DNA of 59,217 bases from contig CAXMND010000193.1 of NCBI GenBank assembly GCA_964194675.1, positions 1-59,217 of the forward strand, in the 5' to 3' direction. Origin of the DNA: an uncultured Coxiellaceae bacterium (GTDB taxonomy: Bacteria; Myxococcota_A; Polyangia; Polyangiales; Houyiibacteriaceae). Position numbers and translations under genes: made by a program. Positions 25,420 through 40,959 of this stretch are shown here, piece by piece (the first letter of the stretch is position 1; every line of letters starts with the position of its first letter). The notes beneath the pieces are model-generated. The model was not told where the DNA came from and made no database searches. It worked only from the letters and a program-made list of their open reading frames with translations.

Positions 25420-26295
25420 ATGGAGCCGTCCGTAATCGAACCGCAACCATCCGAGCCCGCTTTTGCGCTCACGCGCGAAACCGTGACCGTGGGCGATTTA
25501 GTTTCGAAGGCTTCCGAGGCGTGGCAACGCGATGTCGGCACTTGGGTGCTTGCGACCGTGCTCATGGTGCTGATCGGGTTCGGGATTCCGTTCGTGCTCG
25601 GCTTGGTCGTCGGCATTCTCGGAGCACTGCTCTCCGGAGGCGATCCCCATCCCGCCGCCCAGGCGATCATGACCGGCCTTCAGGTTGGGGTTCAGATTCT
25701 GCAAACGGTCGTTCAGGGTGTCCTTGGGCTCGGGTTTTGGGCGATGGCGATCCACACCTTGCACGGAAAGCCGGCACCGATCGGTGCGCTATTCGGCCAG
25801 ATCAACAAGGCCCTCAAGTACATCCTCCAAGTGCTTGCGATTTGGCTCCCGCTCGGCGTCTTGTTCGCCGCGATCGGCGCGGCGGTGTTCTTCATCTCCG
25901 TGGGATCGATCGACCTCGACATGCCGCTCGACGAAGCGTTCGAGACCGCCGCACCCGCACTCGGGGTCTTCTTTCTGGTCAGCATCCCGATCTACGTCTA
26001 CATCTTCCTCGGGATTCTATTCGCGCAGCTCGAGCTCGCCTACAACGACAGCGCGGGTCCCATCGATGCGGTCGTGTACTCGTGGCGAATTGCTCGCAAG
26101 CGGCGCTGGTTGGTGCTGGGCGTCACCCTCATTTCGAGTCTGATCGCCATAGGCTCGATGCTACTGTGCGGCGTCGGCTTTCTGTTTGGCGGACCGCTGG
26201 CGACCCTCATCGTCGCCGCGCTCTATTTGGCACTTCGAAACGGCGCGGACGTTCCGGCACCCGCCACCCGCTCCACACTCGACCGAGTCTATTAA
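25420..26295 (+). CDS. Integral membrane protein, unknown function
   Basis: About six hydrophobic segments; LLCGVGFLFGGP motif. Confidence 0.7.
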   Translation: MEPSVIEPQPSEPAFALTRETVTVGDLVSKASEAWQRDVGTWVLATVLMVLIGFGIPFVLGLVVGILGALLSGGDPHPAAQAIMTGLQVGVQILQTVVQGVLGLGFWAMAIHTLHGKPAPIGALFGQINKALKYILQVLAIWLPLGVLFAAIGAAVFFISVGSIDLDMPLDEAFETAAPALGVFFLVSIPIYVYIFLGILFAQLELAYNDSAGPIDAVVYSWRIARKRRWLVLGVTLISSLIAIGSMLLCGVGFLFGGPLATLIVAALYLALRNGADVPAPATRSTLDRVY

Positions 26296-28325
26296 CGTGG
26301 GGCCGCGGCGATGTTCCCACCATCGACGGTGATGACACACCCCGTAGTGCTCGGCGCAAGAGCCAGGCTGACAAACGCATCGGCTACGTTCTCCGCAGTG
26401 ACCTCACGATTGAGCAGATTCGATCGGTAGTAGGCATCGGCGTCGAGGCCGCGGGCCTCGGCACGCCGCCGGACGTCCTCCGAGGCGAGCAACGCGGTTC
26501 GAATGCGGTCGGCGTTCACAGCGTTGCTGCGCACCCCGATGCTCCCGCCCTCGATCGCGTATTGCTTCATCAGAGCAACGACCGCTGCCTTGGGAATCGC
26601 GTATGGGCCAAAGCCCTTGCCAGGATTAAACGCCGCTTTCGAGGCATTGAAGAGAAGAAAACCGCCCATCCCTTGCGCGCGCATCACCCGCAGCGCCGAA
26701 GAGGCGAGGTATTGATGCGAAAAGAAGTTTACCTCGAAGCTCTTTTTGAGATCGCGGGTAGCAATCTCGTCGATCGCGCCCTGCGGAGCGATGCCAGCGT
26801 TAGACACGACTCCGTCGATGCCGCCGAAAGCGCGAACGCAGCGTTCGACACTCTTTCGGACGGCGGACTCGTTCGACACGTCCAGGACTTCGCAACGCGC
26901 TCCTAGTGGCTTCGCGACACCGACCAGTGTCTCCTCGTCGCGGTCGGTCAGATAGAGCGACGCCCCCGCGTTGGCGAATGCCCGAGCGCAAGCGGCGCCA
27001 ATGCCCCTACCCGCCCCCGAGACGTACACGACACGGCCCTGCAAGGGCTTGGGTCTTGATTTCCCGAGCTTCGCCTGCTCTAGCGACCAGTACTCCATAT
27101 CGAAGAGGTCGGCTGTTGGCAGCACCTCGTACCGGCCTATCGCTTCCGCAGATTCGATCACGCCGAGTGTGTGCTCATAGATGTCGCCCGCAATCGCCGC
27201 CGCCTTTTCCGTCGCCCCGATCGAAATCAGGCCGATCCCGGGCATGAGGACGATTTTCGGGTCGGGATCGAGTTGGGCTACCTCGCGTCCCTTGGCGCTG
27301 GACTCGCGTGTGACATAGGCCCGATAGTCCTCGCGATAGCTCCGCAGCCTTTCGTCGATGTGCGATGCGATCATCGACGGGTCCATCTGGGGAGACAGGT
27401 CGAGGAGCAAGGGCACACGCTTGGTCCGAATCACGTGGTCGGGCGTGGCCGTCCCACGCTGCGTAATCGTCGCAAGATCCGCGCGGGCCAAGAACCGTTC
27501 GATCGCGTCGTCGTGCCGGAGACTCAAGAGGTAGCGCCTCTCACCTTCCCCGACCTTTCCACGCAAAATCGGCGCGACGGTCGCGTAGTCCATGTTCTCC
27601 CGGGGAACCCGAGCCACCGCTGCGTTCGCGGCAGCGTTCTGTCCGAACCGCTCTGCCTTGTCCACGGCAGCGATGTGCCGTTCGTAGCTCTCCTTCGCGG
27701 TTTGCCCAAACGTAAACAGCCCATGGCGAAGCAACAGAAGGCCCTCGACATCCGGATTCTGTTCGTAGGTTTCGGCCGCAAGCTTTGCGAGCGCGAACCC
27801 TGGCATGATGTAGGGAACGATCGCCAACGTGTTGCCGAAGACGGCGCGACAGACGTCTTCGGCGCTGGGTTGATCGACGAGCGCCAGGATCGCATCGGCG
27901 TGTGAGTGGTCGATGAATTTGTGGGGGAGAAACGCATGCAGGAGCGTTTCGACCGAAGGATTCGGCGAGCTCGAGTCGATCAATCGAGTTCGCTGAGCGT
28001 TCACCATCTCTTCGTCCGAAAGTGCATCGCGGTTGCGCAGCGCCCCTAGGCTCTCGAGGCGCACGGCTGGAAGCCCAGCAGGCTCGATATCGCCAAGGTC
28101 CCAACCACTTCCTTTGACACAAAGGACGGCGACTTCTCGTCCTGTGTCATCGCACGCCGTCGTCTTGACCGAGGTGTTGCCACCGCCATGCAACACGAGC
28201 GCCGGGTCCTGTCCGATCAAACGCGACGTGTACACGCGGAGCGCGATGTCCTCGTTGATGCCGGGATCATCGCGATAGCGTTCGATCGTCGCTCGCGCGT
28301 CTGCGTCGGACCATCGGCTCACCAC
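26292..28325 (-). CDS. Bifunctional class II aldolase / short-chain dehydrogenase (RhaD/YuxG-like)
   Basis: LVLHGGGNTSVK, PSVETLLH, HSHAD and PDHVIRTK; SDR motifs GAGRGIG, NAG and YAIPK. Confidence 0.9.
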   Translation of the reverse strand: MVSRWSDADARATIERYRDDPGINEDIALRVYTSRLIGQDPALVLHGGGNTSVKTTACDDTGREVAVLCVKGSGWDLGDIEPAGLPAVRLESLGALRNRDALSDEEMVNAQRTRLIDSSSPNPSVETLLHAFLPHKFIDHSHADAILALVDQPSAEDVCRAVFGNTLAIVPYIMPGFALAKLAAETYEQNPDVEGLLLLRHGLFTFGQTAKESYERHIAAVDKAERFGQNAAANAAVARVPRENMDYATVAPILRGKVGEGERRYLLSLRHDDAIERFLARADLATITQRGTATPDHVIRTKRVPLLLDLSPQMDPSMIASHIDERLRSYREDYRAYVTRESSAKGREVAQLDPDPKIVLMPGIGLISIGATEKAAAIAGDIYEHTLGVIESAEAIGRYEVLPTADLFDMEYWSLEQAKLGKSRPKPLQGRVVYVSGAGRGIGAACARAFANAGASLYLTDRDEETLVGVAKPLGARCEVLDVSNESAVRKSVERCVRAFGGIDGVVSNAGIAPQGAIDEIATRDLKKSFEVNFFSHQYLASSALRVMRAQGMGGFLLFNASKAAFNPGKGFGPYAIPKAAVVALMKQYAIEGGSIGVRSNAVNADRIRTALLASEDVRRRAEARGLDADAYYRSNLLNREVTAENVADAFVSLALAPSTTGCVITVDGGNIAAAPR

Positions 28326-28339
28326 GTAGCCGACGTAGC

Positions 28340-28683
28340 ATGATCGTCGCCGGGTCGGCACGCGGTCTCAGCGAGGCGCCGTCACGTTTCGAGCTGGAGG
28401 ACGGCCGCGTGGTCCGCGTCGCAGCGGGGGAGCCATGGCCGTTTACGGTCGGTGACGAAGATGCGCCGCCCGCGAACGCATCGGTATTGGAGCTATCGAC
28501 CAGCGGTCCGGGAACCGTCGTCACCGACAACGGCGCCGAGATCGACGAAGTGTTGGCACGGCACAATGCCACCGTCGCCTCTCCGGGCTGCGGCTGCACC
28601 GTGTCCGGCGAGTCGACTCACGTGGCCGCTTGGGGCGGCTTGGCGTTGTTCGCGTTTCTGATGAGCGACGGCGAAGGCGCTAG
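28340..28683 (+). pseudogene. 3' remnant of a surface protein with a MYXO-CTERM-like tail, frameshifted
   Basis: GCGCTV followed by a TM segment. The poly-Arg codons CGA CGG CGA AGG CGC TAG are one base out of frame; no signal peptide. Confidence 0.6.
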
Positions 28684-28731
28684 TCGCTCTAACGGCTCGC
28701 GTATCCCCAAAAAGGGACAGCTTTCGAGCGG

Positions 28732-28804
28732 TGCCCAGACCTGGAATCGAACCAGGGACACGAGGATTTTCAGTCCACTGCTCTACCAACTGAGCTATCT
28801 GGGC
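28732..28804 (-). tRNA. tRNA-Phe (GAA)
   Basis: GCCCAGA acceptor stem pairs with TCTGGGC; D-arm AGCTCAGTTGGTAGAGC; anticodon loop CTGAAAA; T-loop GGTTCGATTCC. Followed by CCG, so CCA is not encoded. Confidence 0.97.
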
Positions 28805-28821
28805 CCGAAAAGCAGGCGCGG

Positions 28822-28849
28822 AGCCTAGCCGCCGACCGTGGCCTGTCAA
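28822..28849 (-). promoter_or_regulatory. Sigma70-type promoter of tRNA-Phe
   Basis: TTGACA-N16-TAGGCT followed by GC-rich discriminator CCGCGCC. Confidence 0.7.
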
Positions 28850-28917
28850 GCGCGAGAGAAAACTTGCGTTCCGGTAGTCCTTCAGGATTACAATAGTAGG
28901 TGGATGGTGTAGGCAGG

Positions 28918-30279
28918 ATGGCGAGCCCTGTGGATGATCGTGGTGTCGAGACATTCCTTCGATTGCTGACCGAAGGTGCAAGCGGCCCCCGTGCGAAGTT
29001 CGAAGCCCTCGAAGGCCTGGTGACACGCAAGGTGTGGCTAGCGACCTGGGAACCACGAGCCGAAGGCTTCCGGACGTTGATCAACAGCGACGGCGAAGAA
29101 GCGCTCGCCGTGTTCAGCTCCGAGAAGGAATTGATCAATGCGGCGGGCCGATTCAGCTGGCTCGAGTCGGACGGCAACGTCGCCGTGCACGAAAGCATGG
29201 GCGCGGACATTCTGAGGCACGCGTGGACTCGCGAATACGCATTCGTGGTCGTGGACATCGCCGCTGATCATTCGCTCGAATACGACCGGGAAGAGATTAG
29301 GATGGCGCTTCGGGAGTTGGATACTACGGGGCCTTTCCGAACTTCGCGTCCGCCTGCACCATCGGCGTCCGAGGTGCCCGAACCGAAAAGCTCTTTTCCG
29401 CCGCCGGTCGAGAAAATTTCGACGATGTACAGCATGGCACCCTCACGCGTCGAGAAGCTCGATCGCTTGAGCGACCTCCCGACCGAGCCACACGAGATTC
29501 CGCCAGAGAGCGACCTCCCGACTAGGCCCCATGCCAAGCCGGCTGGGGAGTCGCGGGACCCCACGACCGGCAACCGACCGAGCTCTCGCCCGGCCGCGAA
29601 ACCGGACAGCAACCCGCCGCCGAAGATCGAAGAGGTCGTGTCCGAATCCGCAAAGGTCGAGGTCGCGGGAACGTATGGTGCCGCCACCATTGTTCCGCCG
29701 ACGGCGGGATCGTCGAAGCCCGGATCTGAAGCCGCACCCAGGCTCAACTCCGATGCGCCGACAGCCCCAGCAGCACGGGCGTCTGACTTGGGGCCACGGG
29801 GTAAGTTCGCGCTTCCCCCGGTCGGGCCGATCGGGAAGCCTCGGGTCGACCCGCCGCCGCTGGTAGAGCCGCCGTCTTCGGTTGACGAGGCGTCGTCGGA
29901 CACCGGCGCCAACCGTCCGTCGCGTCTCGCGCCACCTTCGATCGGAGACGCGATCGAGATGGTGAAGTTGCTGTACGCGCCCCACGAGGAGTTGTTGGAA
30001 GCCCTAGATAAAGTGCTTCGACGGTACCCCGAGATCGAATGGGCGTCTTATTGTCAGGTCGCGCGCCCTGCCGGCGACCCGAGCCCGGCCGTCGGTCTCC
30101 GCATCACCGACACCTATCGTGACAACGTGACGGCCATCATCAAAGAGCTTTGCGACGCGGGCCGAATCCACGACGTAGAAATCGACGTCCTGCTCATCGA
30201 TGGCCACGACCTCCTCCGCAAGGCCCGCGAGCACGCTTTCGTGTTCTTCCCCTGGAAGCCCAAGCCCTTTGGCGGTTGA
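28918..30279 (+). CDS. SseB-like protein with long Pro-rich linker
   Basis: N-domain DGEEALAVFSSEKEL (SseB-like); about 190 aa Pro/Ser-rich low-complexity linker; globular C-domain ending FFPWK. Confidence 0.6.
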   Translation: MASPVDDRGVETFLRLLTEGASGPRAKFEALEGLVTRKVWLATWEPRAEGFRTLINSDGEEALAVFSSEKELINAAGRFSWLESDGNVAVHESMGADILRHAWTREYAFVVVDIAADHSLEYDREEIRMALRELDTTGPFRTSRPPAPSASEVPEPKSSFPPPVEKISTMYSMAPSRVEKLDRLSDLPTEPHEIPPESDLPTRPHAKPAGESRDPTTGNRPSSRPAAKPDSNPPPKIEEVVSESAKVEVAGTYGAATIVPPTAGSSKPGSEAAPRLNSDAPTAPAARASDLGPRGKFALPPVGPIGKPRVDPPPLVEPPSSVDEASSDTGANRPSRLAPPSIGDAIEMVKLLYAPHEELLEALDKVLRRYPEIEWASYCQVARPAGDPSPAVGLRITDTYRDNVTAIIKELCDAGRIHDVEIDVLLIDGHDLLRKAREHAFVFFPWKPKPFGG

Positions 30280-30305
30280 CTGCGGCACCGGCAGGGCGCT
30301 AGCCA

Positions 30306-31628
30306 GTGCTGGTGACCCTTGGTGATGCACCGCCTGCCATCCGAAGCCCCATTCCAGCGGGCGCTGGCCAAGCATGGGTGGAGCGCTTGGCGGCGAGCGA
30401 ATGCCCTGCGCTGACGACGCGACGCAAGCGGCGCGCTGAGCGCACGGGGGCGAATCACGATCCGATCGTGTGGGTAGAGGCCCAAGGAACCAACGTGGTC
30501 GACGCCGATGGCAACCGGTATGTTGACCTCACCTCAGGCTTTGGAGTCGCGTTGATCGGGCACGGACACCCCGCGGTCGTCGGGGCCGTCAAGGGACAGG
30601 CCGACGCGCTCCTGCACGCGCTCGGTGACCTCTACCCGTCCTCGGTGAAGATCGAGCTTCTCGAAAAGCTGTGCGCCCTGTCGCCATGGCCCGAAGCGCG
30701 CGCGATGCTGTCGCTTAGCGGTGCGGACGCAGTCACAGCAGCGTTGAAGACAGCCGTGATGGCGACTGGGCGACCCGGGGTCGTCGCTTTCGAGGGCAGC
30801 TACCATGGCCTGTCCTATGGGCCCTTGGCGGTATCCGGCTTTGCGGGGCGCTTCCGCGCACCGTTCAAACGACAATTGGGTTCGCACGTGCACTTCGCAC
30901 AGTGGCCAAGCACCGACGACGCGGTCGATCGAGCACTCAGTAGCCTGCCCACCGACTGGAGCGAGATCGGTGCCCTGATCGTCGAACCGATCCAAGGGAG
31001 GGCAGGAGTGCGCGTGCCGCCGCAAGGATTCCTGAACAAGCTCGGCAAGACGTGTGAGCAGCACGGCGTAGTGTTGATCGCCGATGAGATCTTCACTGGG
31101 CTCGGCCGATGTGGAGCGTGGTGGCGCTCGGTGCGTGACGAGGTGGTACCCGATGTCATTTGCGTCGGGAAAGCGCTCGGAGGTGGGCTGCCAGTCAGCG
31201 CGTGCATTGCCCGCGAGGAGGTGATGCGCGCTTGGGGCGACCCCGACCACGAGGCCATTCATACCGGCACGTTCTTCGGCGACCCGCTCGGCGCGGCGGC
31301 CGCCCTGGCGACTCTCGGGGTGATCGAGAAAGAAGGGCTCGTCGCGCTGTCCGAAGAGCGAGGCGCTGCGTTCGCGAAAACGCTCCACGGGGCATCCCTT
31401 CGAGGGGTCTCTGAGGTCCGGCATGCGGGCACGATGCTCGGTGTTCAATTGGAAGCAGAGCTTCGGGCCTTGTCGGTGTCCCGCGCGCTTCTCGAAAAGG
31501 GATATCTGATCCTTCCGGCGGGGGAGCGCGCCGACGTCATTCAGCTCGTGCCCCCGGTCTCGCTGAGCCAAGCGCGATTCGACGGGTTCGTGGATGCCCT
31601 CGACGAAGTCCTGGAGACGGTCCCGTGA
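30306..31628 (+). CDS. Class III PLP-dependent aminotransferase
   Basis: DADGNRYVDLTSGFGV, GSYHG, EPIQGRAG, LIADEIFTGLGRCG, GKALGGG and HTGTFFGDP motifs. Confidence 0.92.
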   Translation: MLVTLGDAPPAIRSPIPAGAGQAWVERLAASECPALTTRRKRRAERTGANHDPIVWVEAQGTNVVDADGNRYVDLTSGFGVALIGHGHPAVVGAVKGQADALLHALGDLYPSSVKIELLEKLCALSPWPEARAMLSLSGADAVTAALKTAVMATGRPGVVAFEGSYHGLSYGPLAVSGFAGRFRAPFKRQLGSHVHFAQWPSTDDAVDRALSSLPTDWSEIGALIVEPIQGRAGVRVPPQGFLNKLGKTCEQHGVVLIADEIFTGLGRCGAWWRSVRDEVVPDVICVGKALGGGLPVSACIAREEVMRAWGDPDHEAIHTGTFFGDPLGAAAALATLGVIEKEGLVALSEERGAAFAKTLHGASLRGVSEVRHAGTMLGVQLEAELRALSVSRALLEKGYLILPAGERADVIQLVPPVSLSQARFDGFVDALDEVLETVP

Positions 31629-32680
31629 GCGTTCGGGCCAAGCTCGAGCGGCGAGTCGAGGGGCTCATCGCCGACCCCGACGCGCGCAAGGACGAAGTAC
31701 GGGATCAACTGATCGCAGATGTCGCCAAGTGGCAGGCCGCGCGCGTTCCCGAGTACGGTCGCTTGCATCGACAGAGCGCCTGGCCCCCTGCCCTGCCGAC
31801 AGACGTGTTTCGCGTTCGGCGAATCGCCTCGCATCCCCCCGAAGAGGACATCCGCGTCTTTAATAGCTCCGGTACGACGTCGTCGAACCGCAGCACCCAC
31901 GTTTTCAAGGACCTCAGGCTCTACGACGCGGCAGCGAGGGCAGCCGCGAAGCACATGCTGTTCCCCGATGTCGATCGGATGTGCCTGGTGTTGTTGGCGC
32001 CTCACGAAGATGAGGCCCCACACTCGTCACTCAGCTACATGCTGACGCGGTTCACGGAATGGTTTAGCGCCGAGCACACCTGGGTCTGGCACGATGATTC
32101 GCTCGACATCGATCGCTTCCAAACCGCGCTCGGCGAGGCGGTCGCCGACGGACAAGCGGTCGCTTTGCTCGGCACGTCGTTTGCTTTCGTGCATGCGGAA
32201 GATCAGCTTGCCGACCTGCGCGTCGCACTCCCCCGGGGGAGCCGCATCATGCACACCGGCGGCTACAAGGGCCGTTCGCGTGAGGTCGAGCCAACCGTGC
32301 TTCGCCGTACGATGGGTGTGCGCTACGGTATCCCAGAACCTTGGATTATCGCCGAATACGGTATGACCGAGCTCAGCTCCCAGCTGTACGAGACTACGCT
32401 GCGCGACGTTCTAGAGAGCATCTCATCACCGAGACGGCTCTGGGTCCCTCCGTGGGTGCGCGCAATACCGGTCGACCCAGACACGTTGGAGCCCGTCCAA
32501 AACAACGCGCGCGGCGTGCTTCGCATCGACGACTGCGCGAACTTGGATTCGGTGTGCTGCATCCAAACGGCCGACCTCGCGATGAGGATCGAGGATGGAA
32601 TCGTAGTCGAGGGCCGTGCACCCGGAGCCGTCTCACGAGGCTGCTCACTGGCAGCAGACCAGGCTCTGGGGTTGAGCTGA
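31625..32680 (+). CDS. LuxE-like acyl-protein synthetase
   Basis: FNSSGTT, HTGGYKGR, EYGMTELSSQ, DCANLDS, IQTADL and C-terminal GRA...RGCSL (acyl-accepting Cys). GTGA overlap with the upstream gene. Confidence 0.85.
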   Translation: MSVRAKLERRVEGLIADPDARKDEVRDQLIADVAKWQAARVPEYGRLHRQSAWPPALPTDVFRVRRIASHPPEEDIRVFNSSGTTSSNRSTHVFKDLRLYDAAARAAAKHMLFPDVDRMCLVLLAPHEDEAPHSSLSYMLTRFTEWFSAEHTWVWHDDSLDIDRFQTALGEAVADGQAVALLGTSFAFVHAEDQLADLRVALPRGSRIMHTGGYKGRSREVEPTVLRRTMGVRYGIPEPWIIAEYGMTELSSQLYETTLRDVLESISSPRRLWVPPWVRAIPVDPDTLEPVQNNARGVLRIDDCANLDSVCCIQTADLAMRIEDGIVVEGRAPGAVSRGCSLAADQALGLS

Positions 32681-32681
32681 C

Positions 32682-33908
32682 ATGGCGGACGAGCCCTCGG
32701 TCATCCGGAAGCGGGCCAAAGCCGTTCTCGAAGCCGGGGGGATGCTCCGGAGTCGCTCGATCGAGGAGCGTGCGCAGTGGCTCGCTGCGTCCGCGAAGGC
32801 CCTGGGTGACGACACGCCCTTAGGACGCGAAGCCTGCGAGACGCTTCCAAAAGAGACCGGGTTGAGCGACGCGATGGTGGCCTGGGCCCTTCGGACGACC
32901 CTCGACACCGTGCATCGGGACGCGCTTCTCGGGGTCGCCGAGGAGGCGTTCGCGATCGTCGGTAGAAGGCCCGACCCGATTTCGTTCTTGTCCGTCGTCC
33001 TGGCGGGCAACGTGTTCACGGCTTCGGTCCGTGGAATCGTCGTGCCGCTCCTCTTCGGTGTTCCGATCCTGGTCAAAGCCTCCTCGAACGAAACGCGGTT
33101 TCCGTCCCTCATGCGGAAGGCGCTCCGGCGCTCGGATGCCGAGCTCGGCCTGGCGATGGACATGGTGGTGTTCCCTGGCGGTGATATCGATCGCGAGACC
33201 GCATTGCTCGAGCTTGCCGAAGCGGTGGGTGTTTATGGAACCGACGAAACGGTGCGCGCGATCGAACAGCGAATCGACAAACGCATTCCGGTCATCGCGC
33301 ATGGGCACGGAGTCAGCGTCGTTTACTGCAGCGCCCGATCACTTGCCACCGAATCGATCGACGACACCACCGCACGCATGGCTCTCGACCTCGCCGCATA
33401 CGACCAGCGTGGCTGTTTGTCCCCCCAGGTGATCTACGTGAAGGAGACCCTCCGGACACCTGCGGAGAGCCTCGTTGCTCGACTTTCGGAAGCGCTCGAG
33501 GCCGTCGCTGAGACCTTACCGCGGGGTCCGCTTCCCGAGGCCGTTGGCGTAGCGCAAACACAATGGCGTGGCCTCGCGGAGGTCGAAGGAACGCTCGTTC
33601 GCGGTCGTGCGCATGCGCTTGCAATCAATCGCAGCAGCGCGATTCGCTGGAGCCCGGGTTATCGAAACGTCACGGTCGTGCCAGTTCGGAGCCTCGACGA
33701 CGCTTTTGATTCGATGACCGCCTTCGTCGCGCATATCAAGTGCGTGGGAACGGACGCGTGGACACTGCGTGAGCTTGATACGCGATTCGCTGAAAGCGCG
33801 TCATGGAAAGCTTACGTTACCGAGATAGGCACGATGCAAACGCCCGCACTCGGAGCCCCCGCAGACGGCCGCCCCATCTGGGAAGGCCTCTTCCGAACCA
33901 ATGTTTGA
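32682..33908 (+). CDS. LuxC-like acyl-CoA/acyl-protein reductase
   Basis: VLAGNV, LVKASS, VYGTDET, AHGHGVS and catalytic YDQRGCLSPQ. Confidence 0.85.
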   Translation: MADEPSVIRKRAKAVLEAGGMLRSRSIEERAQWLAASAKALGDDTPLGREACETLPKETGLSDAMVAWALRTTLDTVHRDALLGVAEEAFAIVGRRPDPISFLSVVLAGNVFTASVRGIVVPLLFGVPILVKASSNETRFPSLMRKALRRSDAELGLAMDMVVFPGGDIDRETALLELAEAVGVYGTDETVRAIEQRIDKRIPVIAHGHGVSVVYCSARSLATESIDDTTARMALDLAAYDQRGCLSPQVIYVKETLRTPAESLVARLSEALEAVAETLPRGPLPEAVGVAQTQWRGLAEVEGTLVRGRAHALAINRSSAIRWSPGYRNVTVVPVRSLDDAFDSMTAFVAHIKCVGTDAWTLRELDTRFAESASWKAYVTEIGTMQTPALGAPADGRPIWEGLFRTNV

Positions 33909-33916
33909 TTTACAAA

Positions 33917-34044
33917 CTAGCGTGCGAGAGATTTTCGTTTGTGGTCGAGCGCGCCCGCAGAGAGCGACTGAGAGGTACGTCTGTACCTCGCAGGGAGCGA
34001 ACGAGGACGTAAGCCGACCACAAGCGAAAAGATCCGCACGCTAG
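33917..34044. mobile_element. 128-bp imperfect palindromic MITE/REP-like element
   Basis: Terminal IR CTAGCGTGCG/CGCACGCTAG; inner IR TTTTCGTTTGTGGTCG/CGACCACAAGCGAAAA; central hairpin GAGGTAC-gtct-GTACCTC. Confidence 0.7.
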
Positions 34045-34778
34045 ACGCCGATGAAGAGGCGCTGACCAAAGTTCCGCTCGAGTCGTGCTTCGAAAATCCT
34101 CGAAGCTGCGCCCTCGATGTCGTACTCGATGCGCTTGAAGAGGAACGTCTTGGTGTCGCTATCGTAGACCGTGTAGCTCGCACGATTGTCGTAGTCACGA
34201 GGCTGACCGACCGAGCCAACACTGACGATGTACTTCGTACCCTCTTCCAAAGTGAAATCCTCCGGCGGAAGCTCCTCCACCTCGCCGGGCCGAAGGGCGA
34301 ACACCTTGCACAAGTGCGAGTGGCCGATGAGGGTGATGTGGCCGAGATCGTTCCAAATTGGGAGGCACTCCGCCGCCTGGTCGGGCGCGAAGATGTACTC
34401 GAACTCCTCGAGACGTACCGGGGATCCGTGACACAGGTCGACGCCGACGCCTTCGAGACGATGCTTGTAGGGGAGCCCCTTGAGCCACTGCATGTTCTCG
34501 CTGGTAAGCTCCGAAGCGTGCCAGTCGAGCGCCTCGCGTGCCGCCTCATAGTAGTACGAGTAGTCCATCCGTCCCGCGACCGCAGCGTCATGATTTCCAA
34601 GAATCGTGACTTCGGCGACCTCCCTCACCAAGTCCGAGCACTCGTTGGGGCTGCCGCCGTACCCCACCACGTCGCCTAGGCAATGGTAGACGTCGATCTG
34701 CTCGCTGGCGTAGGCGTCCATAACGGCCGACATCGCCTCGATATTCGCATGTACGTCGCTAAATATACCGATCCGCAT
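34041..34778 (-). CDS. Metallophosphoesterase (calcineurin-like, YfcE/MJ0936 family)
   Basis: SDVHAN, LGDVVGYG, GNHD, CHGSP, GHSH and GSVGQPRD motifs. Confidence 0.92.
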   Translation of the reverse strand: MRIGIFSDVHANIEAMSAVMDAYASEQIDVYHCLGDVVGYGGSPNECSDLVREVAEVTILGNHDAAVAGRMDYSYYYEAAREALDWHASELTSENMQWLKGLPYKHRLEGVGVDLCHGSPVRLEEFEYIFAPDQAAECLPIWNDLGHITLIGHSHLCKVFALRPGEVEELPPEDFTLEEGTKYIVSVGSVGQPRDYDNRASYTVYDSDTKTFLFKRIEYDIEGAASRIFEARLERNFGQRLFIGV

Positions 34779-36783: not shown

Positions 36784-37404
36784 CTAGTCGTCGTTGTTGC
36801 CTAGGTGGCCTAAGCGGGCTTGCTTGGTTTTGAGGTAGTCGCGATTGTGCTCGTGAGCCTCGACTTCGTGCGGCTCGCGTCGCGTGACCTTGATTCCATC
36901 GGCCTCCAAACCCGCAACCTTACGAGGGTTGTTCGTCATGAGCGCAACCGATTCCACGCCTAGGTCGCGAAGCATGTCCGCGGCCACGTGATAGCCGCGC
37001 TGGTCGTCTTCGAATCCGAGAGCCAGGTTTGCATCTACCGTATCGAGCCCTTGGTCCTGGATCGCATAGGCGCGGATCTTGTTGCCGAGGCCGATGCCGC
37101 GACCCTCCTGACGGAGGTAGAGCACGGCACCGGTGCCAACCTGCTGAACACGCTCGAGCGCCAGGTCGAGCTGGTCTCGACAGTCGCACTTCAACGAATG
37201 CAACACCTCGCCTGTGAGACACTCGCTGTGCACCCGAACGAGAACGTCCTGAGCGCCTTCGACCTCGCCAACGATCACCGCGACATGTTCCTTGTCGTCG
37301 TCGAGCTCCTTGTATACGACGACTCGAAACGGCCCAAAGCGCGTCGGGAGCTTCGCCTCCGAATAGCGTTCGACGGTCGGCTGGTGATCACTGCGGTTGC
37401 CCAT
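36784..37404 (-). CDS. ribA: GTP cyclohydrolase II
   Basis: VRVHSECLTGEVLHSLKCDCRDQL, YLRQEGRGIGLGNK and MTNNPRK motifs. Confidence 0.96.
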   Translation of the reverse strand: MGNRSDHQPTVERYSEAKLPTRFGPFRVVVYKELDDDKEHVAVIVGEVEGAQDVLVRVHSECLTGEVLHSLKCDCRDQLDLALERVQQVGTGAVLYLRQEGRGIGLGNKIRAYAIQDQGLDTVDANLALGFEDDQRGYHVAADMLRDLGVESVALMTNNPRKVAGLEADGIKVTRREPHEVEAHEHNRDYLKTKQARLGHLGNNDD

Positions 37405-37432
37405 TTGCCCAGTGCGCGGTACCACAACCGGC

Positions 37433-38983
37433 GTGCTTGTTCCATCCGCCGAGGCTCAGTCGCTCCGCAAGGATCTCGCGGACCTGGTGAGCGGAGGCCG
37501 CGCCTCCACGGACCCCGCAGACCGAGCAGCGTACGCACGAGACATGTGGCCGCGGCAACAGATCCGGACGCGAGACGGCGAGGCGGCAATCGCTCCACCC
37601 GCCGTGATCGTATGGCCTGCAGATGTGCAAGAGATAGCTGAGGTTCTGCGATTCGCGGCCGAGCGTGGAATCCCAGCGGTTCCCTATGGCGCGGGGAGTG
37701 GGGTCTGCGGCGGCATCTTGCCCGACGACCGTACGATCCTGATCGATGTCAAACGGTTGGACGGAATCCGAAACGTCGATCCGGACACGCTAACCTGCAG
37801 CGCCGGCGCCGGCATCGTGGGGCAAAACCTCGAAGACCAGCTGAACGCCAAAGGGTACACCTTCGGACACTTTCCCTCCTCGATCTACTGCTCGACGTTG
37901 GGTGGATGGATCGCCTGTCGTGCCGCCGGGCAAACCTCGGGGCGTTACGGAAAGATCGAAGATCGAGTGCTTGGGCTCACATTCGTCGACGGTACGGGAA
38001 AGATTTGGCGCGCCGACCGGGAAGGCGAGAACGAGGTGCTGTTGCCATTGTTCATCGGGAGCGAGGGGATCTACGGCGTCGTCACCGAAGCGAAGCTCCG
38101 CCTCGATCCGGCGCCGACCGAGCGACTGTTTTCGTCATGGCTGTTTCGCCACACCGAAGACGGCCTAGATGCGATCCGGCAGATCTATCAGGCAGGGCTC
38201 CGTCCTGCAGTCGCGCGTTTGTACGACCCGTTCGACTCGATGATCTCGAGGAGCTTCAAGAGCAAAGACAAAGGAGAGACCCGTGACCCGTCGGACAAGA
38301 GCAAGGGGCCCGGAATCGGAACGCGGTCGCTGGTTCGGTTGATCCGTCGCCCGAGAACGATCAACCGCCTGATCGATTTCGCGGATCCCGCCATGGGAGG
38401 CGCGAAGCTAGTGCTCGTGTGGGAGGACAACCCCGAGATCGGCCGCGCGGAGCACGACGAGGCCGAGCGTATCTGCAACAGCTTTCGCGCCCGCAACACC
38501 GGCGAGGGGCCAGCGCGCCAGTGGTTCGCTCACCGACACGCGATCAGCTACCGGCAGTCCGCCTTCTTCACGGCCGGGGCGTTCATCGACACCATGGAGG
38601 TGGCGGCGACCTGGTCTCGTATGTGGCCGATGTACGAAGCCGTTCGTAAGGCGCTTTCCCCGAACGTATTCGTGATGGCGCATTTCAGTCACGCGTACCC
38701 CGAAGGAGCGTCGATCTACTTTACGTTTGCAGGAGCGGCCGCCAACGATGCGGCAGCCCTCGAGCGCTATGACGAAACTTGGCGCTCAGCGCTCCTCGCG
38801 GTGGTCGACGTCGGCGGAACGTTGAGCCACCACCACGGAGTTGGGCGCTCGAAGGCGCCAATGATGCGGCGGGAGCAAGGGGCGGCCATCGATGTCGTGC
38901 GGGGCATCAAACGCGCGCTCGATCCGCGAGGGATTCTCAACCCTGGGTCGTTGATCCCACTCGGTGAGGCCGAAGATGCTTGA
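37433..38983 (+). CDS. FAD-binding oxidoreductase, alkyl-DHAP-synthase-like (VAO family)
   Basis: PYGAGSGVCGG, GHFPSS, STLGGWIACRAAGQTSGRYGKIED, GSEGIYGV, HFSHAY and SHHHGVG motifs. Confidence 0.85.
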   Translation: MLVPSAEAQSLRKDLADLVSGGRASTDPADRAAYARDMWPRQQIRTRDGEAAIAPPAVIVWPADVQEIAEVLRFAAERGIPAVPYGAGSGVCGGILPDDRTILIDVKRLDGIRNVDPDTLTCSAGAGIVGQNLEDQLNAKGYTFGHFPSSIYCSTLGGWIACRAAGQTSGRYGKIEDRVLGLTFVDGTGKIWRADREGENEVLLPLFIGSEGIYGVVTEAKLRLDPAPTERLFSSWLFRHTEDGLDAIRQIYQAGLRPAVARLYDPFDSMISRSFKSKDKGETRDPSDKSKGPGIGTRSLVRLIRRPRTINRLIDFADPAMGGAKLVLVWEDNPEIGRAEHDEAERICNSFRARNTGEGPARQWFAHRHAISYRQSAFFTAGAFIDTMEVAATWSRMWPMYEAVRKALSPNVFVMAHFSHAYPEGASIYFTFAGAAANDAAALERYDETWRSALLAVVDVGGTLSHHHGVGRSKAPMMRREQGAAIDVVRGIKRALDPRGILNPGSLIPLGEAEDA

Positions 38984-39851
38984 GTTCTTCGACGAGATCC
39001 AGCTTAGTCTCCCCGGCACCCTCGACAAGAGCGGAGAGCAACCGACGATCAGCCCGGGTTCGGCCCGCGCCGTCACGCACTTGATGCAGCTGGCCAACAA
39101 GACCGGCGTCGCGCTGCAGGTGCCGGGTGGCGAGCCGCATCCCGACCGACCGGCGCTACGACTGGATCGACTCGACGGGATCATCTCCGTCGACGAAATC
39201 TCGAGGATTATACACGTCCAGGCTGGGATCGCCCTTGGTGTGGTCGAGGAGAGGGCAAACGATCACGGGTGGACGCTTGGTGTGTCTAAAGCGCTGCACC
39301 GGGAACAGGTTGGCGCCTGGCTCGCGCGAGGCGCGCCGGGTCGAGCCGACAAGGCCAACGACCCTGTCATGCAAAACGTCGCGGGCCTCGAGCTCGTACT
39401 GCCTTCGGGAGCCGAGTTCTCGATCCGACCGGCGCCTCGTCGAGCGGTGGGCCCGGACTTGATTCGTGCGGCCATCGGTGCACACGGACGCCTCGGCGTC
39501 ATCGTCGGAGCACACCTGGTTGCCCACGCCAAGCTGGTCGAATCGCTGTTCGCATTTTCGTTCCCCGATTCCCGAGCCGCAAACCGAGCGCTCGCCTGGA
39601 TCCGCGGAAACGGAGTGCGTCCCCTTCGAGCAGCCGTCCAGCGAGACCAACTCCAAGTCGTCCTCGAAGCGGAGGGCCCACGATACGAAGCGGCGACCAA
39701 GGTGATGAGGCGGGTCATAGCAGAAAACGGGGGAACGGAGCTTGCGAATCAGCCGAAGATCGACGTCTCACAAGAACGACTCCCCGCAAGCGGAGAGGTC
39801 TTCGACCGACTGGCAAGCGAGCTGGACCCCAACGGAGTCCTGCAGCCCTGA
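38976..39851 (+). CDS. Shortened FAD-binding oxidoreductase partner (GlcE-like)
   Basis: PRRAVGPDL..GAHGRLGVI and terminal LDPNGVL; overlaps the upstream gene. Confidence 0.7.
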   Translation: MLEFFDEIQLSLPGTLDKSGEQPTISPGSARAVTHLMQLANKTGVALQVPGGEPHPDRPALRLDRLDGIISVDEISRIIHVQAGIALGVVEERANDHGWTLGVSKALHREQVGAWLARGAPGRADKANDPVMQNVAGLELVLPSGAEFSIRPAPRRAVGPDLIRAAIGAHGRLGVIVGAHLVAHAKLVESLFAFSFPDSRAANRALAWIRGNGVRPLRAAVQRDQLQVVLEAEGPRYEAATKVMRRVIAENGGTELANQPKIDVSQERLPASGEVFDRLASELDPNGVLQP

Positions 39852-39885: not shown

Positions 39886-40959
39886 TTAGCTTTCCCCCTG
39901 CTGCTTCATCAGCTCCGCCTGATGGTGACTTCGCAACGCGGTCAGGAGCTCTTCCACATTGCCTTCCATCATCCGATCGAGGCTGTGGAGGGTGAGTTGG
40001 ATGCGGTGGTCGGTGAGGCGGTTTTGCGGGAAGTTGTAGGTGCGGATCTTTTCGGAGCGTTCGCCTGTCCCGACCATGCTTCGACGTTCTGAGCTGATCG
40101 CACTCGCCTGCGCCTCGCGTTCGAGGTCGAGGAGCTTGGCCGAGAGGATCTGCATCGCCTTGGCCTTGTTCTGATGCTGCGAACGCTGTTGCTCCGAGCG
40201 CACCATGATGCCGCTCGGTAGGTGCTTGATCTGCACGGCAGACATCGTTCGGTTGACGTGCTGGCCCCCGGGCCCGCCGGCGGCGGTCGTGGAGATCTCG
40301 AGATCACTCGGGTCGATCTTGACTTCGTCTATTTCGTCGACTTCGGGCATGACCGCCACAGTGGCCGTCGATGTATGGATACGACCCTGCGACTCGGTCG
40401 TCGGAATCCGTTGCACCCGGTGTACCCCGCCCTCGAACCGGAGCTTCGAATAGACGTTCTTGCCGGAGACCTCGGCGATGACCTCCTTGATGCCTCCCGC
40501 GGATGCCTCACTGAGCGACGACACCTCGACCTTCCAGCCTTGCGTCTCCGCATAGCGTGAGTACATGCGAAAGAGATCCGCAGCGAAGAGCGCTGCTTCT
40601 TCCCCTCCGGTACCGCTTCGAATCTCGAGGATCGTGTTGCGTTCGTCGCTCGGGTCCTTCGGAAGGAGCAACAGGTTGATACCCGCCTCGAGCGCTTGCC
40701 GTTCCTTTTCGAGGCCCGGGATCTCCTCTTCGGCAAGCTCGCGAAGATCAGGATCGGAGAGCGCTTCCTTGTGGCCCGCGATGTCCTCGACGACCTGGCA
40801 GTATCGCGTCCACGTCTCGACAACCTCCTGCAAGTCAGCACGCTCCCTGGTGAGCTGCGTGTACCTCTTCGGATCCGACACCACATTGGGCTGGCAAAGG
40901 CGCTCTTCGATCTCGCCATAGCGAGCCGTCAGCGACTCGAGCTTGTCTTTCGGAAGCAT
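39886..40959 (-). CDS. prfA: Peptide chain release factor 1
   Basis: GTGGEEAALFA, GVHRVQRIPTT (PxT), GGQ and IRTYNFPQNRLTDHRI motifs. Confidence 0.97.
   Translation of the reverse strand: MLPKDKLESLTARYGEIEERLCQPNVVSDPKRYTQLTRERADLQEVVETWTRYCQVVEDIAGHKEALSDPDLRELAEEEIPGLEKERQALEAGINLLLLPKDPSDERNTILEIRSGTGGEEAALFAADLFRMYSRYAETQGWKVEVSSLSEASAGGIKEVIAEVSGKNVYSKLRFEGGVHRVQRIPTTESQGRIHTSTATVAVMPEVDEIDEVKIDPSDLEISTTAAGGPGGQHVNRTMSAVQIKHLPSGIMVRSEQQRSQHQNKAKAMQILSAKLLDLEREAQASAISSERRSMVGTGERSEKIRTYNFPQNRLTDHRIQLTLHSLDRMMEGNVEELLTALRSHHQAELMKQQGES

Follow-up and report, generated by a model that had tools for sequence, protein, structure and literature searches.

A three-gene operon in a Polyangiales-type member of Myxococcota encodes a class III aminotransferase dependent on pyridoxal phosphate (PLP), a LuxE-like adenylate-forming acyl-protein synthetase and a LuxC-like NAD(P)H thioester reductase. 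From sequence comparisons, it is likely that this trio converts 7-carboxy-7-deazaguanine (CDG) through 7-formyl-7-deazaguanine into 7-aminomethyl-7-deazaguanine (preQ1), thus replacing QueC and QueF in queuosine synthesis. The operon lies on contig CAXMND010000193.1 of assembly GCA_964194675.1, a 3.5-Mb metagenome-assembled genome (MAG) with a completeness of 95.6%; the window hereafter means the whole stretch of 59,217 nucleotides analysed. Among 401 Myxococcota genomes, the distribution of the LuxE-like gene and that of QueC and QueF are nearly exclusive.

The synthesis of queuosine is regarded as solved, with the participation of FolE, QueD, QueE, QueC, QueF, Tgt, QueA and QueG or QueH. In the canonical route, QueC converts CDG into the nitrile preQ0 by ATP-dependent amidation and dehydration, and QueF then reduces preQ0 to preQ1 with two NADPH. 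In the predicted route, QueD and QueE, encoded elsewhere in the genome, would make CDG; the LuxE-like enzyme would adenylate its carboxylate in an ATP-dependent reaction and transfer the acyl group to its own C-terminal Cys340; the flexible tail of this protein would deliver the acyl group to Cys245 in the LuxC-like protein, where the thioester would be reduced with NAD(P)H to 7-formyl-7-deazaguanine; and the aminotransferase would turn this aldehyde into preQ1 at the expense of an amino donor. Tgt would insert preQ1 into tRNA, and Tgt and QueA would proceed as usual to queuosine. The proposed start and end compounds, and the place between QueE and Tgt, are the same as for QueC and QueF. In contrast, the two sets of enzymes share no homology, and the route by the trio would pass through no nitrile intermediate, using one ATP, one NAD(P)H and an amino donor.

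We infer both the substrate and every chemical step of this route. The idea came from the chemistry, in which an acid on a heteroaromatic ring would end as an aminomethyl group; preQ1 is the aminomethyl counterpart of the carboxylic acid CDG. CDG as the substrate and preQ1 as the product are more likely than lipid compounds because no lipid genes accompany the trio, because its relatives are found in queuosine operons and because its distribution is complementary to that of QueC and QueF. The predicted aldehyde, 7-formyl-7-deazaguanine, is a known releasable compound, described as a hydrolysis product of QueF variants in a report on that enzyme (PMC13740343). A literature search, with supplementary tables outside its scope, gave no link of LuxC or LuxE to preQ1 and no description of a route free of QueC and QueF. 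As the best explanation, known enzyme families and reaction types would act here in a new pathway role, the route to preQ1 being undescribed.

Queuosine genes and the distribution of the LuxE-like gene

The genome carries the queuosine genes on both sides of the predicted step. QueD (TIGR03367, 106.6 bits against a cut-off of 89.25), Tgt (TIGR00430, 458 against 307) and QueA (NF001140, 435 against 324) are all present, and QueE is full-length (TIGR04349, 280 bits, profile positions 1-206 of 210). Neither QueC nor QueF was found in the genome with the Pfam QueC and QueF models or by tblastn with myxobacterial QueC and QueF proteins. The same gap extends to the genus, for which Tgt was detected in 20 of 21 genomes, QueD in 19 and QueF in none; no full-length QueC was detected in the genus, 7 of the 21 genomes giving partial matches only (27-41 bits).

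Two side observations concern these genes. A 244-aa open reading frame (ORF) with a weak partial QueC match (TIGR00364, 33 bits against 150) occurs at L240:1968-2702 (G405:C3) and in four other genomes of the genus; it adjoins QueD in some of them and is absent from the genome of the window. Downstream of the genome's own QueE (L245:1402-3031, G000:C231), one unassigned 220-aa ORF is followed by a YjbQ-family gene (142 bits), which carries the annotation secondary thiamine-phosphate synthase.

One sample of 401 Myxococcota genomes was used alike for the LuxE-like gene, QueF and QueC, and the three genome lists were compared by eye. The LuxE-like gene was found in 319 of the 401 genomes (283/340 of the high-quality ones) and QueF in 85, of which 51 were strong (E <= 3e-30). 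None of the 51 strong-QueF genomes carries the LuxE-like gene, and QueC is present in 61 of the 82 LuxE-negative genomes against 10 of the 319 LuxE-positive ones. The same pattern was observed family by family: the LuxE-like gene and QueF are present in 23/23 and 0/23 genomes of family f1, 28/29 and 0/29 of f2, 29/34 and 0/34 of f20, and 25/29 and 0/29 of f23, while the reverse holds for f11 (0/6 and 6/6) and f13 (0/4 and 4/4). Within family f6, genome G285 lacks the LuxE-like gene and has QueF and QueC, and its two relatives show the opposite. Outside Myxococcota, QueF was above the cut-off in none of five pair-bearing genomes of Verrucomicrobiota and Planctomycetia.

Direct linkage to queuosine genes was detected after the fetched loci were searched with the genome's own QueD, QueE, Tgt and QueA. 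The order QueE-aminotransferase-LuxE-LuxC on one strand was found in two Verrucomicrobia loci (L324, L340), and LuxE-LuxC-aminotransferase with QueE downstream in a Zhuqueibacter MAG (L319). At L069/L247, QueE (best PDB match QueE 4njg, E 6.5e-31) lies directly beside LuxE-LuxC, and this locus groups in the tree inside the Polyangiales clade that holds the protein of the window. The arrangement LuxE-LuxC-QueD was found in 13 Verrucomicrobiota-type loci. In none of the 323 loci that gave a LuxE match does QueC or QueF occur closer than 6 kb to LuxE. A Gfo/Idh/MocA oxidoreductase is encoded upstream in three Verrucomicrobia or Acidobacteriota loci and looks unrelated; for its 206-aa neighbour, no solved relative was found.

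The predominance of QueD (13 loci) over QueE (4 loci) as the queuosine neighbour, together with the lack of an adjacent aminotransferase in the QueD-linked loci, would fit a role of the pair in reducing another acid of the pathway, such as the QueD product 6-carboxy-5,6,7,8-tetrahydropterin, or in making a 7-deazapurine or pterin amine other than preQ1. We consider this unlikely, given that the genomes have retained QueE, Tgt and QueA and that these enzymes depend on CDG and preQ1, that the complementarity is with QueC and QueF, enzymes acting after CDG, and that QueE-aminotransferase-LuxE-LuxC operons exist.

Several observations weigh against the conversion of CDG into preQ1. No queuosine gene is adjacent to the trio in the window or in the close Polyangiales loci except L069/L247 (1/68), and the 13 LuxE-LuxC-QueD loci are without an adjacent class III aminotransferase. 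A preQ1 riboswitch was found neither in the window nor in the 43 aminotransferase- or queuosine-linked loci scanned. The QueE of the genome, with its 280 bits, falls just below the model cut-off of 300. As for the distribution, 14 LuxE-positive genomes (f37, f42, f49) carry a QueF-like ORF (54-72 bits), 8 LuxE-positive genomes have a strong QueC, and strong QueF is also absent from 31 of the 82 LuxE-negative genomes; related genomes are not independent, so that the evolutionary events are fewer than these counts suggest. The aminotransferase is without the conserved C-terminal Arg of ArgD/GabT-type enzymes, leaving the amino donor ambiguous. Finally, a sister clade is tied to thiamine and not to queuosine, implying that substrates shift within the family.

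The QueF-like ORFs of f37, f42 and f49 (for instance G152:C1:1990216-1990437), 200-250 aa in length, accompany the LuxE-like gene mostly without QueC, and could represent either a divergent QueF for salvaged preQ0 or another T-fold enzyme.

Conservation and properties of the three proteins

A survey of gene neighbourhoods confirmed the linkage of the trio. The scan of the LuxC-like family, with one genome per species, returned 80 loci, nearly all from Myxococcota-type MAGs, and adjacency was counted among these close loci. When the count is confined to loci that extend 3.2 kb or more to either side of LuxE, the aminotransferase is encoded no farther than 3 kb from it in 35 of 36; LuxC follows LuxE in 60 of the 61 close loci that reach far enough downstream. 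Sufficiently long loci from other Myxococcota classes show the aminotransferase next to LuxE in 19 of 25 cases, and all five genomes tested without this adjacency carry a full-length orthologue elsewhere (45-48% identical, against 33-37% for the next paralogue). In one Myxococcota family (L110:4801-8883, G249:C2), LuxE-LuxC follows genes for homocitrate-synthase-like, aconitase-family and pyridine-nucleotide-disulphide oxidoreductase proteins, and the aminotransferase orthologue of G249 lies on another contig, not beside the pair. The other neighbours, GltB/GltD, a thioredoxin-reductase-like protein and an alpha/beta hydrolase in Planctomycetia, and the Suf system and dnaN/recF in other Myxococcota, gave no functional lead.

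Gene fusions were also found within the family, for which 2339 relatives of the LuxE-like protein were detected among 1.8 billion representative sequences. Three clusters are aminotransferase-LuxE fusions (P0130/P0274, P0143/P0275 and P0271), with aminotransferase parts 52, 49 and 43% identical to the aminotransferase of the window; the P0275 fusion is present on three contigs. Five LuxE-LuxC fusions were detected. A 759-aa metagenome protein from ENA (P0210) carries a zinc alcohol dehydrogenase fused to a LuxE-like domain, and suggests an acid-to-aldehyde-to-alcohol variant of the module.

The initial annotation had proposed an acid-to-aldehyde-to-amine unit outside bioluminescence, making a fatty or other primary amine or running in reverse. 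The first part is supported by the conserved adjacency, the unlinked orthologues and the fusions: the trio forms a functional unit that should carry out the chemistry from acid through thioester and aldehyde to primary amine. The fatty-acid substrate, and with it the fatty amine, has no support: neither LuxD, acyl carrier protein (ACP), fatty-acid nor secondary-metabolite genes accompany the trio, and its relatives lie in queuosine operons or, in the case of a sister clade, in thiamine operons.

The two Lux-like proteins are remote from their namesakes. In the PDB, the LuxE-like protein has a single relative, LuxE of 7xc6 (E 8.5e-8), and its score for the LuxE equivalog NF052244 (long-chain-fatty-acid--protein ligase) is far too low (31.9 bits against a cut-off of 550). 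The catalytic Cys motifs noted in the initial annotation are both kept, RGCSL with Cys340 and DQRGCLSP with Cys245. Cys340 (codon 32642-32644) sits 11 residues before the C-terminus of the LuxE-like protein, and the RGCS motif is invariant in alignments of distant family members; Cys340 of 351 is matched with Cys364 of 373 in LuxE by position only, the HMMER alignment to LuxE ending at residue 319. For the LuxC-like family, a 12-sequence profile matches LuxC of 7xc6 (E 1.7e-7), YDQRGC aligns with the reductase Cys motif YDQQAC of that protein, and Cys245 (codon 33414-33416) is invariant across the 12 sequences. The LuxC equivalog NF052251 (long-chain-fatty-acyl-CoA reductase) is again not reached (26.3 bits against 750). 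No other LuxE homologue was found in the whole genome; the LuxC of the operon scored 108 bits in the genome scan, the next LuxC-family matches being 27 and 22 bits.

The LuxC-LuxE complex of Photobacterium phosphoreum (7XC6) is built from the same two families, with the reductase Cys aligned and the genes adjacent and sometimes fused, and a common mechanism of ATP activation, acyl transfer and NAD(P)H reduction to the aldehyde is presumed. In that complex, Cys364 of LuxE, like Cys340 located near the C-terminus, and the active-site Cys of LuxC are reported to carry the fatty acid reductase mechanism (PMC12041015). By analogy with 7XC6, we infer that the LuxE-like and LuxC-like proteins would also form a complex. 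In contrast to LuxC-LuxE, the trio is very remote in sequence, is coupled to an aminotransferase without luxAB or luxD and has a context of queuosine rather than light, and its proposed substrate is a deazapurine carboxylate in place of myristate.

The trio is not part of a lux operon for bioluminescence. As noted from the window, luxAB and luxD are missing, and the search was extended to the genome: no LuxD family member was found in the whole genome at its 95.6% completeness, and the seven generic luciferase-like monooxygenase matches are all located on other contigs, none on that of the window. LuxC and LuxE homologues outside bioluminescence occur among the rfb tetronate genes of Vibrio cholerae O1. 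Others are described from flagellin glycosylation islands (PMC4875605).

Reduction and amination of a fatty or other aliphatic acid, to yield a fatty or other primary amine for use in lipids or natural products, would agree with the homology to the LuxC-LuxE fatty acid reductase and with the tambjamine BE-18591 pathway, for which a LuxC-like reductase followed by transamination is described (bioRxiv 10.1101/2025.08.11.669332). Apart from the low equivalog scores and the lack of LuxD, the neighbours of the trio are housekeeping genes (Suf system, dnaN/recF, GltBD) and not lipid or biosynthetic-cluster genes, the gene is spread over 319/401 Myxococcota genomes like a core function, and relatives of the trio are linked to queuosine genes; such a role is therefore very improbable. 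The analogy with tambjamine and myxochelin B drawn in the initial annotation describes the logic of the trio and not its pathway. TabE plus transaminase of tambjamine BE-18591, ArgB/ArgC/ArgD and carboxylic acid reductase cascades all proceed from acid to activated acid, aldehyde and amine, a LuxC-like reductase being part of the Tab pathway in the same preprint. These systems use ACP or coenzyme A thioesters or acyl phosphates of fatty or amino acids, whereas in the trio a LuxE-type acyl-protein synthetase would supply the thioester, and the context is tRNA modification.

The aminotransferase is nearest to ArgD/GabT-type enzymes without belonging to them. Among the best 25 NCBIfam families none reaches its cut-off, the best being acetylornithine transaminase (288.7 against 457); a further transaminase family scored 240.3 against 506.65. 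The PLP-binding Lys289 (VGKALGGG; codon 31170-31172) corresponds in an alignment to the Lys of ArgD and BioA from the same genome. In ArgD/GabT-type transaminases, a Glu and a C-terminal Arg handle the dicarboxylate substrate. In this alignment, made from 60 orthologues together with those two proteins, Arg232 stands in place of the Glu (EPIQGR) of ArgD/GabT-type enzymes, including the own ArgD, and Gln413, Cys or Ser in divergent orthologues, stands in place of the C-terminal Arg. This swapped pattern at residues 232 and 413 is kept in about 60 aminotransferase orthologues.

The similarity to ArgD/GabT-type enzymes, and a logic shared with ArgB/ArgC/ArgD, would suit a second way into a semialdehyde pathway of amino-acid or cofactor synthesis (ornithine, proline, lysine, gamma-aminobutyrate, beta-alanine or 5-aminolevulinate). 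This is hardly credible, for the genome carries canonical LysC, ArgB, ProB, ArgA, Asd and ArgC as well as ArgD beside argB, BioA, HemL and HemA, and PanD was detected in 18 of the genus's 21 genomes. With these canonical genes in place, the trio fills no gap in arginine, proline, lysine, haem or beta-alanine synthesis: replacement of ArgB/ArgC/ArgD, ProB/ProA, LysC/Asd or HemA/HemL is rejected in view of the genes of the genome, and beta-alanine synthesis in view of PanD.

A sister clade linked to thiamine

In a scan centred on distant family members, the LuxE-LuxC pair was detected in Bacillota, Bifidobacterium, Burkholderiales, Pantoea, Bosea and others. In these loci the pair is followed by a short-chain dehydrogenase/reductase (SDR), and the neighbours include ThiM, ThiD, ThiE, ThiW, and a nucleobase-type permease or an ABC transporter whose binding protein is of the THI5/NMT1 type. 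A thiamine pyrophosphate (TPP) riboswitch precedes the operon in 9 of 11 sister-clade loci scanned. An OarX-like SDR is located within 6 kb in 60 of the 80 loci of the thiamine set, and ThiD, ThiM or ThiE in 26. In Neobacillus (L148:1280-9337), the SDR of a LuxE-LuxC-SDR operon is OarX-like (NF006393, 298 bits); similar operons occur at L143, L145, L154, L156, L162, L172, L175 and L187, some with a Xan_ur permease. The thiamine loci form one clade (Shimodaira-Hasegawa-like approximate likelihood ratio test 99-100), with no aminotransferase-linked locus inside and the protein of the window outside.

These modules share with the trio the invariant motifs YGMTELSSQ and RGCS, and probably also act on a heteroaromatic acid. 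They differ from the trio in forming a separate clade behind TPP riboswitches, beside ThiM, ThiD, ThiE and precursor transporters, and since they have an SDR instead of an aminotransferase, the expected product is an alcohol. As judged from these neighbourhoods, the LuxE-LuxC-SDR modules could serve to activate and reduce an oxidised thiamine moiety. Recycling of such moieties by activation and reduction is proposed in a paper on OarX (PMC11223231), in the accessible part of which LuxC and LuxE go unmentioned and the function of OarX is left open.

The sister clade raises the question of whether the trio itself salvages a thiamine-derived acid, for instance by converting 4-amino-2-methylpyrimidine-5-carboxylate into the aminomethyl pyrimidine, to be turned by TenA into hydroxymethylpyrimidine (HMP). 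The OarX-like SDR and thi genes behind a TPP riboswitch (9/11 loci) and the reduction of such acids proposed in the OarX paper (PMC11223231) speak for it. Nevertheless, it is quite improbable for the trio: the thiamine loci stand apart as a clade without aminotransferase-linked members and without the protein of the window, neither the window nor six aminotransferase-linked or related loci gave a TPP riboswitch, ThiC in 20/21 genomes of the genus provides a de novo route to HMP, and a real TenA is lacking. The TENA-family matches in the genus are PqqC or a weak CADD-like protein, and TenA was rejected accordingly. Thiamine salvage by the window was likewise rejected, ThiC, ThiD and ThiE being present in 20/21, 21/21 and 21/21 genomes of the genus and a TPP riboswitch missing. 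The window thus lies outside the thiamine-operon clade, with no TPP riboswitch and no adjacent SDR or thi gene. In the wider scan, a TPP riboswitch was found neither in the window nor in any of the 43 aminotransferase- or queuosine-linked loci. Conversion of CDG into preQ1 remains the preferred role of the trio.

Layout of the operon and meaning of the predicted route

The coupled aminotransferase, luxE-like and luxC-like ORFs were found as initially annotated, both junctions being read in the sequence. The features of the operon and its boundaries are listed in Table 1.

Table 1. Features of the operon and its flanks (positions of the window)
Feature	Position	Strand	Properties and evidence
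tRNA-Phe(GAA), upstream boundary of the unit	28730..28804	-	ARAGORN; Rfam tRNA 69.7 bits
SseB-like two-domain protein, 26 bases upstream of the aminotransferase	28900..30279	+	Pfam SseB N-terminal domain 23.7 bits (cut-off 21)
Class III (PLP) aminotransferase	30306..31628	+	440 aa; Pfam Aminotran_3 301.7 bits
GTGA start/stop overlap, coupling the aminotransferase and LuxE-like genes	31625..31628	+	Read in sequence
LuxE-like adenylate-forming acyl-protein synthetase	31625..32680	+	351 aa; PF04443 38.2 bits (cut-off 24.9), spanning residues 55-347
TGA-c-ATG junction with one-base gap, coupling the LuxE-like and LuxC-like genes	32678..32684	+	Read in sequence
LuxC-like NAD(P)H thioester reductase	32682..33908	+	408 aa; PF05893 113 bits (cut-off 21)
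Metallophosphoesterase gene, convergent, downstream boundary	34041..34778	-	Pfam Metallophos 58.2 bits

The SseB-like protein consists of an N-terminal SseB domain, a low-complexity linker of about 200 residues rich in Pro and Ser, and a conserved C-terminal domain ending in FFPWK. Its gene is located upstream of the aminotransferase in 34 loci (at least 90% coverage) and is a kept partner in Polyangiales; shorter homologues occur in divergent loci. The metallophosphoesterase is 68-94% identical in related loci and is not adjacent in loci from other Myxococcota classes; it is syntenic yet probably unrelated to the trio. A consensus promoter and terminator scan of 28300-34300 detected nothing resembling a promoter and a single terminator-like site, located on the minus strand, a count below that of shuffled sequences. 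The neighbours at 26292-28361 (-), 36784-37425 (-), 37397-39851 (+) and 39886-40959 (-) are ordinary genes, encoding a bifunctional aldolase/short-chain dehydrogenase (868 bits), GTP cyclohydrolase II, GlcD/GlcE-like FAD oxidases and a peptide chain release factor, and none of them stays next to the trio at larger evolutionary distance.

Taking the queuosine and thiamine branches together, we lean towards a joint reading of the family. Queuosine would be made without a nitrile in most Myxococcota, and in certain lineages of Verrucomicrobiota and Planctomycetota and of several candidate phyla, by means of a LuxE/LuxC-type reductase and a dedicated class III aminotransferase, QueC and QueF being dispensable for de novo synthesis and the aldehyde being a natural intermediate; the SDR-paired relatives behind TPP riboswitches would recycle an oxidised thiamine moiety, which would explain the association with OarX. 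For the activation and reduction that the work on OarX looks for, the LuxE-LuxC-SDR set of the thiamine operons offers specific candidate enzymes.

Whether a genome is classed as a "Q maker" or a "Q salvager" depends on finding QueC and QueF in it. If the predicted route is true, large bacterial groups that resemble precursor-dependent salvagers would be prototrophs. The pathway would then not require the nitrile preQ0 as an intermediate, with consequences for preQ0-based DNA modification and for the riboswitch logic of these lineages, and a LuxCE-type reductase for a heteroaromatic acid would become available as a biocatalyst together with its matching transaminase.

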